From the NCBI GenBank assembly GCA_964016885.1, contig OZ024741.1, positions 59,396,001-59,460,000 on the forward strand: a stretch of 64,000 bases of DNA, given 5' to 3'. This document shows, piece after piece, positions 13,667-61,157 of this stretch; within the stretch, counting starts at the first letter, position 1, and each line of letters starts with the position of its first letter. Made by a program: the position numbers and the translations under genes. This DNA is from Eledone cirrhosa (lineage: Eukaryota). Below the pieces are notes generated by a model. The model worked only from the letters and a program-made list of their open reading frames with translations. It did no database searches and was not told the DNA's origin.

Positions 13667-14490
13667 TAAAACCTACTACAGTCAGTAGGCATCTCTAACA
13701 AAATACACCCCCGTCCCACCACCCCCACCCCATCCACACCGCCCCTTTCAATGTAAAGTTATGTTGGTGCCACAAAATCCAGGCCGAAACAAATGAGATC
13801 GTGTAGGTGTCACGACAAAAAAACACACAGTCCACGCTGTAATGTGACCGTGTAGGCAACACGGTAAAAACCTCCCAGTCCCACACTGTAAATGTGGTTG
13901 GTGTTAGGAAGGGCATCCAGCCGTAGAAAACCCGCCAGACAGTCCACGCTGTAATGTGACCGTGTAGGCAACACGGTAAAAACCTCCCAGCCCCACACTG
14001 TAAATGTGGTTGGTGTTAGGAAGGGCATCCAGCTGTAGAAAACCCGCCAGACAGTCCACGCTGTAATGTGACCGTGTAGGCAACACGGTAAAAACCTCCC
14101 AGCCCCACACTGTAAATGTGGTTGGTGTTAGGAAGGGCATCCAGCTGTAGAAAACCCGCCAGACAGTCCACGCTGTAATGTGACCGTGTAGGCAACACGG
14201 TAAAAACCTCCCAGCCCCACACTGTAAATGTGGTTGGTGTTAGGAAGGGCATCCAGCTGTAGAAAACCCGCCAGACAGTCCACGCTGTAATGTGGCCGTG
14301 TAGGCAACACGGTAAAAACCTCCCAGCCCCACACTGTAAATGTGGTTGGTGTTAGGAAGGGCATCCAACTGTAGAAAACCCGCCAGACAGTCCTATGCGA
14401 GCAAGACAACCACTCTTGCCTCAAGTGGGAAAACTCCCGTCCAAACCCATGCAAGCATGGAACATGGACATTAAACGATGATGATGATGA
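13666..14490 (+). mobile_element. RTE family B 3' UTR containing 5 tandem copies of a 112-bp unit (~13827-14392)
   Basis: Matches the 3' UTR at 30847-31225. The 112-bp period is visible in the repeated ORFs. Ends in a (GAT)n tail. Confidence 0.9.
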
Positions 14491-33629: not shown

Positions 33630-33985
33630 TCATCATCATCGTCATCGTTATTGTTATTATTATCATTATTATTTAACGTCCGCTTTCCATGTTAGCATGG
33701 GTTAGACAGGGTATCCCATTTGAGGCAAGTTGAGTTAGGTGACCGTGTCCTGCTCATACAGAACTGTTTCTGGCTAGATTTCTACAGCTGGATGCCCTTC
33801 CTAACACCAACTGCATTTACAGTGTGTAGTAAGTACTTTTCATCATGACTCCTACATGACCACTTTACAGTGTGGGCTGGGTGCTATTTTTCATGACACC
33901 TTCATGACCACTTTACAGTGTGGGCTGGGTGCTATTTGTCATGACACCTTCATGACCACTTTACAGTGTGGGCTGGGTGCTTTTT
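33630..33985 (-). mobile_element. RTE/SINE 3' tail with three ~41-bp tandem units
   Basis: ATGACCACTTTACAGTGTGGGCTGGGTGC occurs three times. A similar copy lies at 34465-34785. Confidence 0.7.
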
Positions 33986-35127
33986 GCTTTATATATGTAT
34001 ATGAAATTCAGTTTTTATTTCCCCCTGAGCTTTCCTCTCAACAGCTGATTTTAACTAACCTCCTTTTTATAAGGTCACATGCTGCGGTTGTTGCCTGAAA
34101 CTGCTCTCGCTATGATATGCCCGTTTGACTGTACCAATTGTTTGGATAAATCCCTCCTTTGAGTTTAGGCTGAACTCCTGCTGATGACTCATTACGTGGC
34201 CTAGGTTATGTATTATATGGTAATGTTACATGACTCCTGTGCAACTGTTGCATATGGAATATAATGTAGAAACTGTCAACAGTCCTGGTGTAAATAATAT
34301 ACCCTCACGCAGCTGTTATAATTACGAATTAACAAAAGATGTCCATTCTGAATTATAAGTTTGCATTTACAACATACATTTCTCATAAAATCATTGCGCG
34401 AGTAAATAGCAACTGGAGCTACAGAATATATCCAATTAGCATTGTTAAACTATTTATCTATATCATGATCATCACCATTTAACGTCCATTTTCCCACGCT
34501 AGCATAGGTTAGATGGGTTGCTCTATTGTGAGACAAGCCAAATCCGATAACCATGTCTTGCTCATACAGGACTGGTTTGGACTTAGTTTCTCTGGCTGGA
34601 TGCCCTTAACACCCACCACATTTATAGTGTGTGCTGTGTGCTTTTTGTCATGACACCTACACAACCACTTTACAGTGTGGGCTGGACACTTTTTGCTGTG
34701 TCACCACTACGACCACTTTACAGTGTGGGCTGGGTGCTTTTTGTTGTGCCACCTACACAACCACTTTACAGTGTGGGCTGGGGAGATAGATCTAGGGGTG
34801 TGTGTGAAGGGGCAGAGTATTCAAGAATGGATGGAGTGTTAAGATGTGGGAGATGCAAGAGGGGGAGGGACATGGATGAAGGGAGTCATGTTAGGATGTA
34901 GAGGTGTATGGGAGGGGGAATACAGTACATACAAGATATATGCTTCAACCTGGGCACACCAGAAAGCATATATATATATATATGACACACCTACATACAT
35001 GCATATGGATATACCCACAAATATATATAGCTACACCTGGCTATACATACATGTGTACTCACACGCACACATTTGTGTAAAGATATATAAGCAAACACTC
35101 ATATGTAATGAAAATATAAAGTATTGA

Positions 35128-37309: not shown

Positions 37310-39813
37310 ATACGACAGTAAAGAAGAACAGATAGAGACATTCAATGTAGAAGAGCACTGGGAGTTCCTAAAAAATAACTTACTAGAGGCGACGGATGAG
37401 GTCTGTGGCTGGAGTAAGACCTCAAGCAGGAGGAGAGTGACTTGGTGGTGGATCAATAAGGTAGATGAAGAAGTTAAGGCCAAGAGACAGGCATGGAAAG
37501 AATGGAAGAACGGGGGGAGCAAGTTACATTACATAGAGACCAAGAGGGAAGCTAGGCAACAAGTATAATTAGCTAGGAGGGAAGCAGAGGATAGAAAATT
37601 CAAGCATGTTTTGCAATGTGAGGACCAGAAACAGGAGGTATTCAAGATTGCGAGGCAGTGTGTCAGAGAGAATTGTGATGTCATTGGAGAGAAGTGTATC
37701 CGGAATGATAAAGGTGAGCTTGCCCTCACAAGTGCTGAGAAGAAAGATGCATGGAAGAGCCATTATGATAGATTACTAAATGAGGAGAATGCATGGGAAG
37801 AAGAGACCCTACCCCAAGTAGATCCTTTAGAGGGGCCAGCAGTACAAGTCAGCAGCAACATAGTAAGTAAGGCAATCAAAGATATGAAGATGGGGAAGGC
37901 AACCAGTCCATCGGGTATAGCTGCCGAGATGCTAAAGGCAAACAGGTCTGTAGGTCACACTATAACCACACATACTGTTAACCAGGTAATACTAGAAGGT
38001 GTCATACCAAAAGATTGGTGCAGTAGCATCATTGTCAACTGCTACAAAGGTAAAGGCGATGCACTAGATAGAGGAAACTATAGAGATATAAAGCTGATGG
38101 GCCAGGTCATGAAAGTAACAGAAAGAGTTATAGCACAGTTGATTAGGGACCAGGTGAAAATAGATGAGATACAATTTGGGTTTGTACCAGGAAGAGGCAC
38201 CACTGATGCCCTCTTCCTTGTGAGGCAGTTACAGGAAAAGTACCTAGCTAAAAGTAAGCCACTCTACCTGGCATTCGTCGATCTCGAGAAAGCCTTTGAC
38301 AGAGTTCCACGTGCTGTAATCTGGTGGGCTCTTAGAAAACTAGGAGTAGATGAATGGCTTGTGAAAGCTGTACAAGCCATGTATAGGGGATCAGTCAGCA
38401 AAGTTAGGATTAGCAATGAGTAAGCGAGGAATTTAGCGTACAGGTTGGTGTCCACTAGGGTTCTGTTCTTAGCCCTCTCCTGTTCATCATAGTCCTGCAG
38501 GCAATAACGGAGGAGTTTAAGACCGGATGCCCATGGGAACTCCTGTATGCAGATGACCTCGCACTTATAGCTGAATCTATGGTAGAACTAGAGAAGAAGT
38601 TCCAAACTTGGAAGCAGGGACTAAAAAGAAAGGGTCTCAAAATCAACATGACAAAGACTAAGGTCCTTGGAAGTAGACGAGAAAACAGAACCCAGATCCC
38701 CCTCAGGGAAATGGCCTTGCTCAGTATGTAGGAAAGGTGTAGGTAGGAACTCCATTCTCTGCTCCAAATGCAAACAATGGGTACACAAGAGATGTAGCGG
38801 GATCTCAGGAAGCTTAATTAAGAATGTAGGCTTCACATGCAGCAGCTGTGCTGGGACAGCAAGCAGCAAACAGCCACAGGAAACAAGTGCCACCAATCTC
38901 TGGAGGGCTCTGTAGAAACAGTAGACAGCTTCTGCTACCTACGTGACCGAATTAGCAGCGGAGGTGGGTGTTCAGAAAATACAATAACTAGGGTAAGAAC
39001 GGGATGGAAGAAGTTCAGGGAACTACTGCCACTGCTAGCTGCAAAAGGCTTCTCCCTCAAAATGAAAGGCAGACTGTATGATGCGTGTATCCGAACAGCA
39101 ATGTTACATGGTAGTGAGACCTGGGCGCTAAAGGTGGAAGACTTACGTAGATTAGAAAGAAACGAAGCTGGCATGCTCCGATGGATGTGTAATAGTAATA
39201 TACGTGAACGACAAAGCATAAATGAATTGAGAGAGAGACTGAGCATAAGAGGAATCAAATGCTGTATGCAGGAGAGGCGGTTGCGTTGGTATGGACATGT
39301 GATGCGTATGAAGGATGACAGCTGCATAAAAAGGTGCAGAGCACTAGAAGTCAATGGAAACCGCGGAGTGGGGAGACCCAAGAAGACCTGGGATGAGGTG
39401 ATAAAAGCCGACCTTACCCAATTACACCTCTCAAAGGCGATGACACACGACCGTGATCTCTGGCGTCACGCAGTAATACAGAGTACCCAACCTCCCATGG
39501 GTACAAGCTGAAGCATATAGACAATATGCCCCCACACCCTCCCACTGCAAGGTGGTCGTGGAGGTGCCACGGCAAAAAAGCACCCAGCCCACACTGTAAA
39601 GTGGACGTGTAGGCGCCATGGAAAAAGCACCCAGCACTCACTGTAAATGAGGTTGGTGTTAGGAAGGGCATCCAGCTGTAGAAATCAAGCCAAAATCAGT
39701 TCCTGTATGAGCAAGGCATGGTCCGCCGACCAGACACTGCCCACAGCAGGACAACCCATCTAACCCATGCTAGCATGGAAGAACGGACGTAAAACGATGA
39801 TGATGATGATGAT
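37310..39813 (+). mobile_element. RTE family C; ~2.5 kb, 5'-truncated, with several disablements
   Basis: RT motifs [35 protein letters not shown] and YADDL, a PHD-like finger, a C-terminal domain and a (GAT)n tail. Confidence 0.93.
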
Positions 39814-43988: not shown

Positions 43989-45269
43989 ATCATCATCATC
44001 ATCATCATCATTGTTTAACGTCCGTGTTCCATGCTTGCATGGGTTTGGACGGGAGTTTTCCCACTTGAGGCAAGAGTGGTTGTCTTGCTCGCATAGGACT
44101 GTCTGGCGGGTTTTCTACAGTTGGATGCCCCTCCTAACACCAACCACATTTACAGTGTGGGGCTGGGAGGTTTTTACCGTGTTGCCTACACGGCCACATT
44201 ACAGCGTGGACTGTCTGGCAGGTTTTCTACAGCTGGATGCCCTTCCTACCACCAACCACATTTACAGTGTGGGACTGGGACGTTTTTACCGTGTTGCCTA
44301 CACGGTCACATTACAGCGTGGACTGTGTGTTTTTTTTTTTTTTCGTGACACCTACACGATCGCATTTGTTTCGGCCTGGATTTTGTGGCACCAACATAAC
44401 TTTACATTGAAAGGGGCGGTGTGGATGGGGTGGGGGTGGTGGGACGGGGGTGTATTTTGTTAGAGATGCCTACTGACTGTAGTAGGTTTTACTTTGTATT
44501 TAGGTAACGCGGGTCTTCTCTGTTACTGAGTACCGCCAAAGGTCTCGGTCCAGTGACATTGTCTTGGAGAGGTGTGTGTGAGGTCGGAATTTATCAGCTC
44601 GTCCCAGGTTTTTCTGGGTCTGCCTACTCCATGGTTACCATCTATCTTTATTGCCCTGCACTTTGTTATACAGCTGTCGTCTTTCATGCGCATCACGTGA
44701 CCATACCAACGTAACCTTCTCTCGAGTAAACAACATCTGATCCCTCTGATTTCTAATTTTTTCCTTAGTTCATTTATGCTTTGCCATTCGCGTATATTAC
44801 TATTACACATCCAGGGGAGCATGCAAGCTTCGTTCCTCTCTAGTCTGCGTATATCCTCTGCACACAATGCCCAGGTCTCACTGCCATGCAAGATTGTTGT
44901 TCGTATGCAGGCATCATACAACCTGCCTTTCACTTTTAGGGAGAACCCTTTAGTGGCTAATAGTGGTATAAGCTCTCTGAACTTTTTCCATCCAGTTCTG
45001 ACTCTAGCTACTGTACTTTCTGAGCACCCTCCCCCACTGCTGATTTTGTCACCCAGGTAACGGAAGCTGTCCACTATTTCTATAGAACCCTCTGCGCAGT
45101 TGAAAGAGCTAGTATTTTGTGGGCACTTGCTGCTACTTATTGCACCAGAGCACCGGCCACATGTAAAATCTGTGTTCTTAGTTAGCTTACCTGTGATCCC
45201 ACTACATCTTTTATGCACCCATACTTTGCATTTGGGACATAAAATGGAGTTTCTACCTACGCCTTTCCT
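43989..45269 (-). mobile_element. RTE family B, 5'-truncated; the 3' UTR has 2 copies of the 112-bp unit
   Basis: ORF 44523-45296. Confidence 0.92.
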
Positions 45270-57400: not shown

Positions 57401-58110
57401 TATAGAGTTATAAACTCAAACAGTCTTTTACAAGTAATTAGCTCAAAGAAAGAAGTATTTCTGAGCCGTGAAATACAAGTTAATATACATTGATATATAT
57501 GATAAACACTAATACAATCATATAAGTGTTTGTATTGCAAATGACCAAGTTAGCTAGATTGAAAAATACTAATTAGATTAATACAGTTTGCCTGTCTCGA
57601 TTTAAAATAGTAAATCAATAAAAACAAACCCATATTGGCAATAGCCGTGGTACTTGGACAAATTTAAATTTCAAAATCCAAACCTGTTCCGTAGATAAGT
57701 TTAAACTTCAAAACCCAAATAAGTTTCGATAATTGAAAAAGTCAAAAATTACATCTTCTGTTCTCATCAGCGAGTACCCAGAAAAATTGGTATGTTTCAC
57801 CTCAAAATATTTAGGAGGACTGATAGATGCACATGGTTTCTCAGCTCCTAGCTACCCCATACTCGTGCTGCTAGAAATAACAGCCGTTATTATGGGACTA
57901 AAATTTAGCTCAACAAAAGGAGCAGTTAATACTATATATAGAGTTATAAACTCAAACAGCCTTTTACAATTAATTATCTCAAAGAAAGAAGTATTTCTGA
58001 GCCGTGAAATACAAGTTAATATAAATTAATATATATGATAAACACTAATACATTTATATAAGTGTTTGTATTGCAAATGACCAAGTTAGCTAGATTGAAA
58101 AATACTAATT
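57401..58110 (-). repeat. HHR-containing tandem repeat, subfamily A, 536-bp period (~1.3 units)
   Basis: TATAGAGTTATAAACTCAAACAG occurs at 57401 and 57937. Confidence 0.85.
57649..57778 (-). ncRNA. Type I HHR with long helix III (subfamily A)
   Basis: Minus strand: GGTACTCG-CTGATGA-GA...TC-GAAAC-long hairpin-GTC-CAAGTACC. Confidence 0.75.
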
Positions 58111-58571: not shown

Positions 58572-58620
<49 letters not shown>

Positions 58621-58794
58621 AATATACATTAAAATATATGATAAACACAAAACGTGTTTGCATTGCAACAGACAGTCAGCTATTAATGAAATAAACTAAT
58701 TAAAGTGAATACAATTTGTCTGTCTCGATATAAGTCAATAAAGACAAGCTTATATTGGCAAAGGCCATGATGTGAGATGTACTAATTTCTACTG

Positions 58795-58970
58795 GATCCT
58801 GTTGATATGCACAGAAGATTTGGATATTTCACTTTTTATTTCAATTCCATTTCGATTCTCTTTATTTTTTAAATTCACATACCACCATTGCGAAACGGAT
58901 TTAGGTTTCGAGGTTCAAATTCGTCTAAAGAACAGGTTTGGATTTTGAAATTTAAATCTGTCCAGGAATC
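58795..58970 (+). ncRNA. Variant type I HHR (subfamily B, unit 1)
   Basis: As 59350-59526, with a 1-nt deletion in helix I. Confidence 0.65.
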
Positions 58971-59349
58971 ATGGCCTTTGCCAATATAAGCTTGTCTTTA
59001 TTGACTTATATCGAGACAGACAAATTGTATTCACTTTAATTAGTTTATTTCATTAATAGCTGACTGTCTGTTGCAATGCAAACACGTTTTGTGTTTATCA
59101 TATATTTTAATGTATTTAACTGCTCGGAAATGCCCCTTTCCTGGAGCTTAATTATTGTAAAGGACTGAGAGCCTATTCTCAAAATATTATATAGTATATT
59201 GCTCCTTAAATGTTAGAGCTGATCTTTAATCCCGCATATATGGCTGTTATTTCTAGCACCGTTAATGCAGCACGGCTAGTTTGGTCTGGCTATACACGTG
59301 TAGTCAGACTTGCAAAATTTTTTGATGTGAGATGTACTAATTTCTACTG

Positions 59350-59526
59350 GATTCCTGTTGATATGCACAGAAGATTTGGATATTTCACTTTTTATTTCAA
59401 TTCCATTTCGATTCTCTTTATTTTTTAAATTCACATACCACCATTGCGAAACGGATTTAGGTTTCGAGGTTCAAATTCGTCTACAGAACAGGTTTGGATT
59501 TTGAAATTTAAATCTGTCCAGGAATC
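59350..59526 (+). ncRNA. Variant type I HHR (core UUGAUAU: U3-A8 and U9) with long helix III
   Basis: GATTCCTG-TTGATAT-GCA...TGC-GAAAC-~27-bp hairpin-GTC-CAGGAATC. Confidence 0.7.
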
Positions 59527-59776
59527 ATGGCCTTTGCCAATATAAGCTTGTCTTTATTGACTTATATCGAGACAGACAAATTGTATTCACTTTAATTAGT
59601 TTATTTCATTAATAGCTGACTGTCTGTTGCAATGCAAACACGTTTTGTGGTTATCATATATTTTAATGTATTTAACTGCTAGGAAATGCCCCTTTCCTGG
59701 AGCTTAATTATTGTAAAGGACTGAGAGCATGTTCTCAAAATATTATATAGTATATTAATATATATATATATATATA

Positions 59777-59997: not shown

Positions 59998-60433
59998 ACA
60001 GTATTTTCCGTTGTGTTGTAATATAAATATTACACACAGTAGATTGACAGCTCACGTAGAGTTTGCTCGACGGTTCCAGTTGAAATTCCAAAAGTAATCC
60101 GGAGAAAAATAGAAAGATTTGAATGGATACAGTTTAGTTGAAAGGAATTTATTGACACGTGTTTAGTTACATAACCTGAAAACAGCTGCTATCTACAAAG
60201 TATTAGTTATGCAGACAATCAATATTTCAATGTTATTATTTACTGTCATTTCATCAGAATGAAATGACAGTAAATTTCTGATGAAATGACAGTAAATAAT
60301 AATATTGAAATATTGATTGTCTGCATAACTAATACTTTGTAGATAGCAGCTGTTTTCAGGTTATGTAACTGTTATAGAAACACGTGTCAATAAATTCCTT
60401 TCAACGAAACTGTATCCATTCAAATCTTTCTAT
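59998..60433 (-). mobile_element. Fold-back element (arms ~60109-60259 / 60276-60433)
   Basis: ~150-bp inverted repeat in (TA)n. Confidence 0.75.
60276..60390 (+). ncRNA. Minimal HHR with long helix II; 5' strand of helix I mostly lost at the fold-back junction
   Basis: CTGATGA-A ATGACAG...CTGTTAT A-GAAAC-ACGT-GTC. Confidence 0.65.
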
Positions 60434-60651: not shown

Positions 60652-61157
60652 AGCCCCATAAAAACGGCTGTTATTTCTAGCAGCACGAGTATGAGGCAGC
60701 TAGACACTGAAAATCCATGTGCGTTGATCAGTCTTCTTAAATATTTTGAAGTGAAACATACCAATTTTTCAGAGTACTTGCTGATGAGATCTGAATTTGG
60801 TATTTTTTCACTTTTTCATTTATCGAAACTTATTTGGATTTTGAAGTTTAAACTTATCTACGGAGCAGGTTTGGATTTTGAAGTTTAAATTTGTCCAAGT
60901 ACCACGGCCATTTGCCAATATGATTTGTTTTTATTGATTTATTATTTTAAATCGAGACAGGCAAATTGTATAATTATAATTAGTATTTTTCATTCTAGCT
61001 AACTTAGTCATTTACAATACAAACACTTATATGTTGGTATTTGTGTTTATCATATATATTAATTTATATTAACTTGTATTGCACGGCTCAGAAATGCTTC
61101 TTTCTTTGAGCTATTTCATTGTAAAGGACTGTTTGAGTTTAGAACTCTTTATTCATA

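Follow-up and report, generated by a model that had tools for sequence, protein, structure and literature searches.

The window analysed in the present study, a 64,000-nucleotide stretch of Eledone cirrhosa DNA, contains two tandem units of a hammerhead ribozyme motif of one subfamily, here termed B. The initial annotation had reported the core UUGAUAU in place of CUGAUGA in both units (58802 and 59358), and direct reading of the sequence bore this out. Core positions are named by Hertel numbering. The features of the locus are as follows:

57649-57778, minus strand: second canonical-core relative (A-like)
58619-58771, minus strand: inverted 5' piece of the 58768-59756 insertion, monomer positions 6-157, adjoining (TA)n
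58768-59756, plus strand: whole forward insertion, from monomer position 361 to 237/238, crossing two cleavage sites, with (TA)n at its end
58795-58970, plus strand: unit 1 hammerhead, UUGAUAU core at 58802-58808, from the sequence
58963-59518, plus strand: one full 556-nt monomer of the putative retrozyme, cleavage site to cleavage site
59350-59357, plus strand: helix I, 5' strand, unit 2, eight Watson-Crick pairs with 59519-59526
59358-59364, plus strand: core positions 3-9 of unit 2 (U3 U4 G5 A6 U7 A8 U9), A9U being 59364
59365-59447, plus strand: helix II (3 bp, G10.1-C11.1; strands 59365-59367 and 59445-59447) with a 77-nt U-rich loop
59448-59518, plus strand: G12-A13-A14-A15.1, long helix III (26 pairs) and GUC, from sequence and folding
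59519-59526, plus strand: helix I, 3' strand, unit 2, from sequence and pairing scan
60773-60903, plus strand: subfamily A hammerhead with the canonical core CUGAUGA, sharing about 73% identity with B across 311 bases

Hammerhead fold of the two units

In unit 2 (59350-59526), GAAAC lies at 59448-59452 and GUC at 59516-59518, as read from the sequence, and helix III consists of 26 consecutive Watson-Crick or G-U pairs; cleavage is predicted after 59518 from the hammerhead consensus. In unit 1, GUC lies at 58960-58962 and the 5' strand of helix I is short of one U, giving five pairs followed by a bulge. The earlier description of the helices, GAAAC and GUC as intact therefore holds for unit 2 and is a slight overstatement for unit 1. 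Unit 2 was the only unit recovered by a pairing scan that required a helix I of at least 6 bp. Three helices surround its junction and the open end lies in helix I, as in type I hammerheads, with helix II weakly predicted. U4, G5 and A6, G12, A13 and A14, A15.1-U16.1, H17 and G10.1-C11.1 are all present, and the conserved A9 is replaced by U9. An alternative register with CUGUUGA as the core was rejected, as it leaves three bases unplaced on either side of the junction.

The 7-mer UUGAUAU by itself occurs at chance level (29 matches, 34.6 expected), and the whole motif is beyond chance (folding z = -3.85; 0 of 200 shuffles equally stable). Its minimum-energy fold contains helices I and III without helix II, the median pairing probability of helix II being at most 0.016 in seven of eight groups under the folding model. 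Across 14 hand-picked units of five subfamilies, 95.7% of cells were paired, against 10-55% when the partners were slid, and two-sided changes occurred at 7 of 36 pairs, a comparison in which kinship of the units inflates the shuffle control. Neither with its gathering threshold nor with an E-value limit of 10 did Rfam give a hammerhead at 59350-59526. It also missed the copy with the canonical core at 60773-60903, which makes the long loops the likely reason. Over the whole window, CUGAnGA occurs 39 times against 20.5 expected, the two canonical relatives included, and none of 100 shuffles had as many.

A dispersed tandem repeat of 556 nt

The two cleavage sites of the locus are separated by 556 bases, and the motif likely belongs to a 556-nt tandem repeat which, judged from its sequence, would be a non-LTR retrozyme copied by Penelope-like elements. 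The circular fold of the monomer has a z of about -3.6 (30 shuffles). The genome that was searched comprises 3.0 Gb in 1,796 contigs, and in it the element is a short tandem repeat with one hammerhead per unit and a period of 556-557 nt, dispersed over many contigs in arrays up to 3.5 units long. Among 61 hit groups from 3-kb loci, with shorter loci and subfamily A loci set aside, 79 of 107 segment ends fell at monomer positions 150-159 (41) or 230-239 (38), beside (TA)n; since these loci were selected for the core, every one crosses a cleavage site by design. The 5' ends of the insertions are scattered, and inverted 5' pieces are common. The AT-rich target, the fixed internal 3' ends, and the 5' truncation and inversion are those of Penelope-type insertion.

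Frames with reverse transcriptase (RT) and GIY-YIG domains occur in the genome. GIY-YIG matches are abundant (10,596 candidates, of which 150 were scored), and an RT domain was found in all five long frames tested among these candidates. Three long open frames at GIY-YIG hits (L224:1275-4562; L225:3809-6622, minus strand; L226:1988-4519), 844-1096 aa in length and with RT domains, are candidate autonomous Penelope-like elements. The pairing scan found no hammerhead in these three frames, and a terminal repeat related to the retrozyme was not found in 42 GIY-YIG loci out of the 10,596 candidates.

Of 33 copies broken near the cleavage site, 3 begin at the site itself, which is no enrichment. 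Two of the 33 are internal deletions, and the 5' starts fall at monomer position 1 (three), 2 (three), 3 (one), 4 (two), 5 (two), 6 (five), 8 (six) and 9 or later (nine). A linear cleaved RNA as template was rejected on this ground, and an uncut or circularised RNA as template is consistent with the pattern. Private variants among units of the same locus (26 loci) comprised 22 shared and 78 unit-private variants; the shared ones fit a circular template, read-through or local conversion alike and do not separate them.

Distribution of the U3-A8 core

When the core was left free, 615 subfamily B matches were obtained genome-wide. Among the matches listed (100 of the 615, all on contig C1), the core was UUGAUAA in 87, UUGAUAU in 7, UCGAUAA and UUGACAA in 2 each, and UUUAUAA and UUGUUAA in 1 each, and none had C3 or G8. 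CUGAnGA was found zero times in the helix I context of subfamily B, and a genome search for a C3-G8 core in that context gave two matches, neither of which was CUGAnGA. The swap is not confined to this locus. Canonical-core B copies elsewhere were looked for and none was found, and searches based on CUGAnGA alone would miss the family, as had been anticipated. Of 14 aligned units, nine have U3-A8 and five have C3-G8, and positions 3 and 8 are paired in all of them, in agreement with the initial reading of U3-A8 as the compensated form of C3-G8.

The U3-A8 pair is common to subfamily B and its sister subfamily C, and it probably represents a single evolutionary event. In the 14 units, both partners change in five of the eight helix I pairs, including two that differ between B and C, and 17 of the 26 helix III pairs change on one side yet remain paired; the pairing kept across subfamilies suggests that the structure was preserved after the swap. 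U3-A8 as a natural variant has already been published (Perreault 2011; Cervera 2014). According to the available part of the former (PMC3088659), it is natural and active in vitro, and about 1,300 U3-A8 motifs are described in Schistosoma Penelope-like elements (PMC4209133). In the accessible deep-mutagenesis data of PMC9901934, strong rescue came from the G3-C8 swap alone and the other double mutants there were low, so U3-A8 may already be weak.

Several related subfamilies were recovered. Subfamily A has the canonical core in 33 of 36 matches, with position 7 variable. Subfamily C (L196:178-312 and L236-L265; 52 matches) is about 74% identical to B and carries U3-A8 with A9 and a shorter helix II loop, its helix I being two compensated pairs apart from that of B. 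The subfamily C search gave 56 matches: 42 UUGAUAA, 6 UUGAAAA (the free position 7 alone changed), 4 with other single changes and 4 CAGAnGA. Subfamily D (L235:6152-6288, minus strand) has a canonical CUGAGGA core, a GUA cleavage triplet and a helix I that is strongly diverged yet paired. Subfamily E shows a third core variant, CAGAnGA (U4A with C3-G8), in six units at five loci (L268:1044-1131 and 1920-2007; L266, L267, L272, L273); its helix III is shorter and position 7 varies. Pairing is complete in both L268 units, and the others have helix I mismatches or internal duplications.

Probable recurrence of A9U

A census of 577 subfamily B copies was made with patterns of one form for each of A9/G11.5, A9/A11.5 and U9. 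U9 occurred in 135 of the 577 (23%) and A9 was kept in 442, of which 429 had G and 13 had A at position 11.5. UUGAUAU, which had been taken as the core of the family, is therefore that of a minority, and the predominance of A9 indicates that U3-A8 and A9U were separate events. U9 was not seen among 36 subfamily A or 56 subfamily C matches.

The first tree, of 109 units, rejected one clade holding every U9 copy (p=0.0026). It did not reject either of two looser groupings, one uniting the second and third U9 groups (p=0.067) and the other joining all U9 groups with one A9 group (p=0.19). A denser tree comprised 146 units at 105 loci, with U9 copies oversampled and the core and position 11.5 masked. 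U9 copies fall into three expanded groups of 20, 19 and 6 loci, to which are added one lone copy and one single-locus event beside the second group; one reversion of U9 to A occupies two loci. In the denser tree, an A9 copy is sister to the third group (support 100/99), A9 copies branch as a ladder between the two large groups, and support for the second group is weak (83/84). Other A>T lineage changes numbered nine over 89 A sites, which gives three such changes at one A site a rough probability of 0.014; a triple recurrence of one change is also seen at 59614, an ordinary column, and some of the homoplasy therefore stems from tree error or recombination. Altogether, A9U is likely a later change that arose three separate times. 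Divergence from the column majority is 0.8-1.1% in the U9 groups and 1.6-3.0% in the A9 groups, which are not clades, and U9 copies are marginally younger by terminal branch length (p=0.06).

Position 11.5 corresponds to 59443, where the window unit has A and most A9 copies have G. The 3' strand of helix II (59441-59447) occurs a second time in A9 copies, at 59531-59538, within a small hairpin shortly downstream of the cleavage site, and both large U9 lineages alter one base in each repeat copy (59443 and 59532).

A natural A9U hammerhead was not found in the literature searched, which included the available text of PMC7151607 and PMC8490949 and had most subscription papers outside it; A9U is likewise not mentioned for the U3-A8 hammerheads in the accessible parts of PMC3088659 or PMC4209133.

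Apparent conservation of the remaining core

In the subfamily B tree (146 units at 105 loci), the 13 core positions other than 9 and 7 showed 0 multi-locus and 14 single-locus changes, against 113 and 329 in the other columns (p=0.026; p=0.08 for changes at three or more loci). Copies were fetched by patterns fixing the 5' half of the core, where changes are undercounted, so this support for selection is modest. Helices I and II showed four multi-locus changes, all of one pair switching from A-U to G-C and back. The covariation of helix I between B and C, and the apparent conservation of the remaining core positions, suggest that the motif is probably still under selection. The earlier argument for function rather than decay is upheld to the extent that, since the swap, selection seems to have acted on helix I and the remaining core; function itself is still inferred.

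Discussion

In the present study, the account that fits best, with a probability of about 0.55, is that U3-A8 is a family-wide core that would keep some cleavage, and that A9U, arising later and three times, would slow cleavage without blocking spread. The retrozyme RNA would be transcribed and would cleave slowly at GUC; a Penelope reverse transcriptase would start at the internal sites 156 or 237, and uncut or circularised RNA would be the template, with copying passing through the cleavage site. The long helix III means that the ribozyme could cut as a monomer. Fast cutting would destroy the uncut or circular template, so that rate-lowering core changes could be tolerated or favoured, with selection still acting on the remainder of the core. 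Changes at A9 are described as 10-100-fold slower in the minimal hammerhead (PMC4075628, citing earlier work). For a Penelope element, ribozyme mutants are reported to insert normally in vitro, with uncut RNA as the main substrate and two internal RT starts (PMC11167929), and PMC11014351 cites a viroid case in which a weak hammerhead was useful. The uncut Penelope substrate, together with the lack of a 5'-end excess at the cleavage site, suggests an RNA that cleaves slowly and is copied either uncut or as a circle. A9U would not be needed for this, since A9 is still present in 77% of the family.

It is also conceivable, though rather unlikely, that A9U largely inactivates the ribozyme and that the U9 lineages spread via uncut read-through RNA, under relaxed selection or by hitchhiking. 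The normal in vitro insertion of Penelope hammerhead mutants (PMC11167929) and the lack of a 5'-end pile-up at the cleavage site would agree with this, as would the presence of C11.1U in all three units of one U9 locus; moreover, activity may be very low when U3-A8 and A9U are combined with a helix II of only 3 bp. Decay, however, would be expected at varied core positions and mostly as transitions, whereas one recurrent transversion is seen and no other core position is altered in any multi-locus lineage (a test of low power within the U9 lineages alone). In addition, the U9 lineages still have multimers of up to 3.5 units. A single origin of A9U, followed by template switching or gene conversion, or one gain with several losses, is quite doubtful. 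The two large U9 lineages do share the derived states at 59364, 59443 and 59532, the looser unions in the first tree were not rejected, and the inverted pieces imply that template switching is common. These shared states nevertheless alternate with lineage-specific markers; a transferred tract spanning position 9 would measure less than about 45 nt, and some six crossovers would be required. The ladder of A9 copies in the denser tree also stands between the two lineages.

An improvement of folding by A9U, either by weakening a competing pairing between the core and the helix II loop or by allowing U9 to wobble-pair with G12 once 11.5 has changed from G to A, appears improbable. The folding model leaves a fraction of 0.75 of the core unpaired in the lineage of the window unit, where three A9 groups have 0.33-0.36. 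The other two U9 groups gain little or nothing, at 0.44 and 0.32, and 0.59 is reached in the basal A9 group. The wobble version would draw on the loss of a fourth helix II pair by the 11.5 change and on the association of the two positions: A11.5 occurs in 56 of 66 sampled U9 units and in 12 of 80 sampled A9 units, the genome-wide A9 figure being the 13 of 442 given above. However, 11.5 is a CpG site at which G changed to A about nine times independently in A9 copies, and at three loci the change is in just one sibling unit, so the association is partly due to CpG decay. Moreover, the U9-A11.5 and U9-G12 pairs have probabilities below 0.01 in the folding model, and U9-A11.5 pairing was rejected as the cause of the co-occurrence because it is not populated there. 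A9 itself pairs with G12 in the hammerhead active site, which also speaks against a gain from its replacement.

Both the element type and U3-A8 are already known. The metazoan non-LTR retrozymes (Cervera and de la Peña 2020, PMC7229834; Li et al. 2026, 10.64898/2026.07.22.740005), as far as the available text of these reports goes, are likewise low-GC, non-coding tandem repeats that occur as dispersed multimers, carry a single type I hammerhead in each unit and are proposed to be mobilised by Penelope elements, the element here being described from genomic copies. Their monomers are 220-350 nt, whereas that described here is 556 nt; helix III has 1-2 pairs in them and 26 here, and the core here is non-canonical. 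The U3-A8 hammerheads of PMC3088659 and of Schistosoma Cercyon (PMC4209133) show the same compensated 3-8 pair in a natural, Penelope-related setting, but the Cercyon hammerheads are minimal and without helix III, unlike the long helix III of the window motif. The Penelope-like element PAc (PMC11167929) has, as here, AT-rich targets, two internal RT starts and copying through the hammerhead. It encodes RT and endonuclease, whereas for the 556-nt repeat no autonomous partner was found in the 42 loci compared, and its RT starts are 30-40 nt apart, against ends 81 nt apart here. The fungal and protist Penelope hammerheads are type I with a large helix III and are predicted to be active as monomers, like the window motif, but they sit in autonomous elements, and no core change is described for them in the available part of PMC4209133.

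About 630 units in one genome (577 of B and 52 of C) escape CUGAnGA descriptors and Rfam. Within them, close natural copies differ at single core positions, with copy numbers and a tree, so that cleavage rate can be compared directly with amplification success across these copies. More tentatively, and at less than even odds, the superfamily, with a hammerhead able to act as a monomer, may tune its ribozyme downward by selection. Three non-canonical cores would then have been sampled, namely U3-A8, U4A, and U3-A8 with A9U, the last reached in three parallel events and present in the youngest expansions, whose core would thus be doubly altered. If so, the copies would form a natural series in which slower self-cleavage raises retrotransposition, and A9U would be an unreported active natural core.

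Other repeats also lie in the window. A long inverted repeat between (TA)n tracts (60193-60344) matches an Rfam microRNA model below the gathering score and is probably a generic hairpin. Tandem arrays with units of 112 bp (13827-14393 and 44096-44326) and 47-48 bp (33842-33985, 34615-34782 and 39543-39647) recur at several sites and are likely other dispersed repeats.
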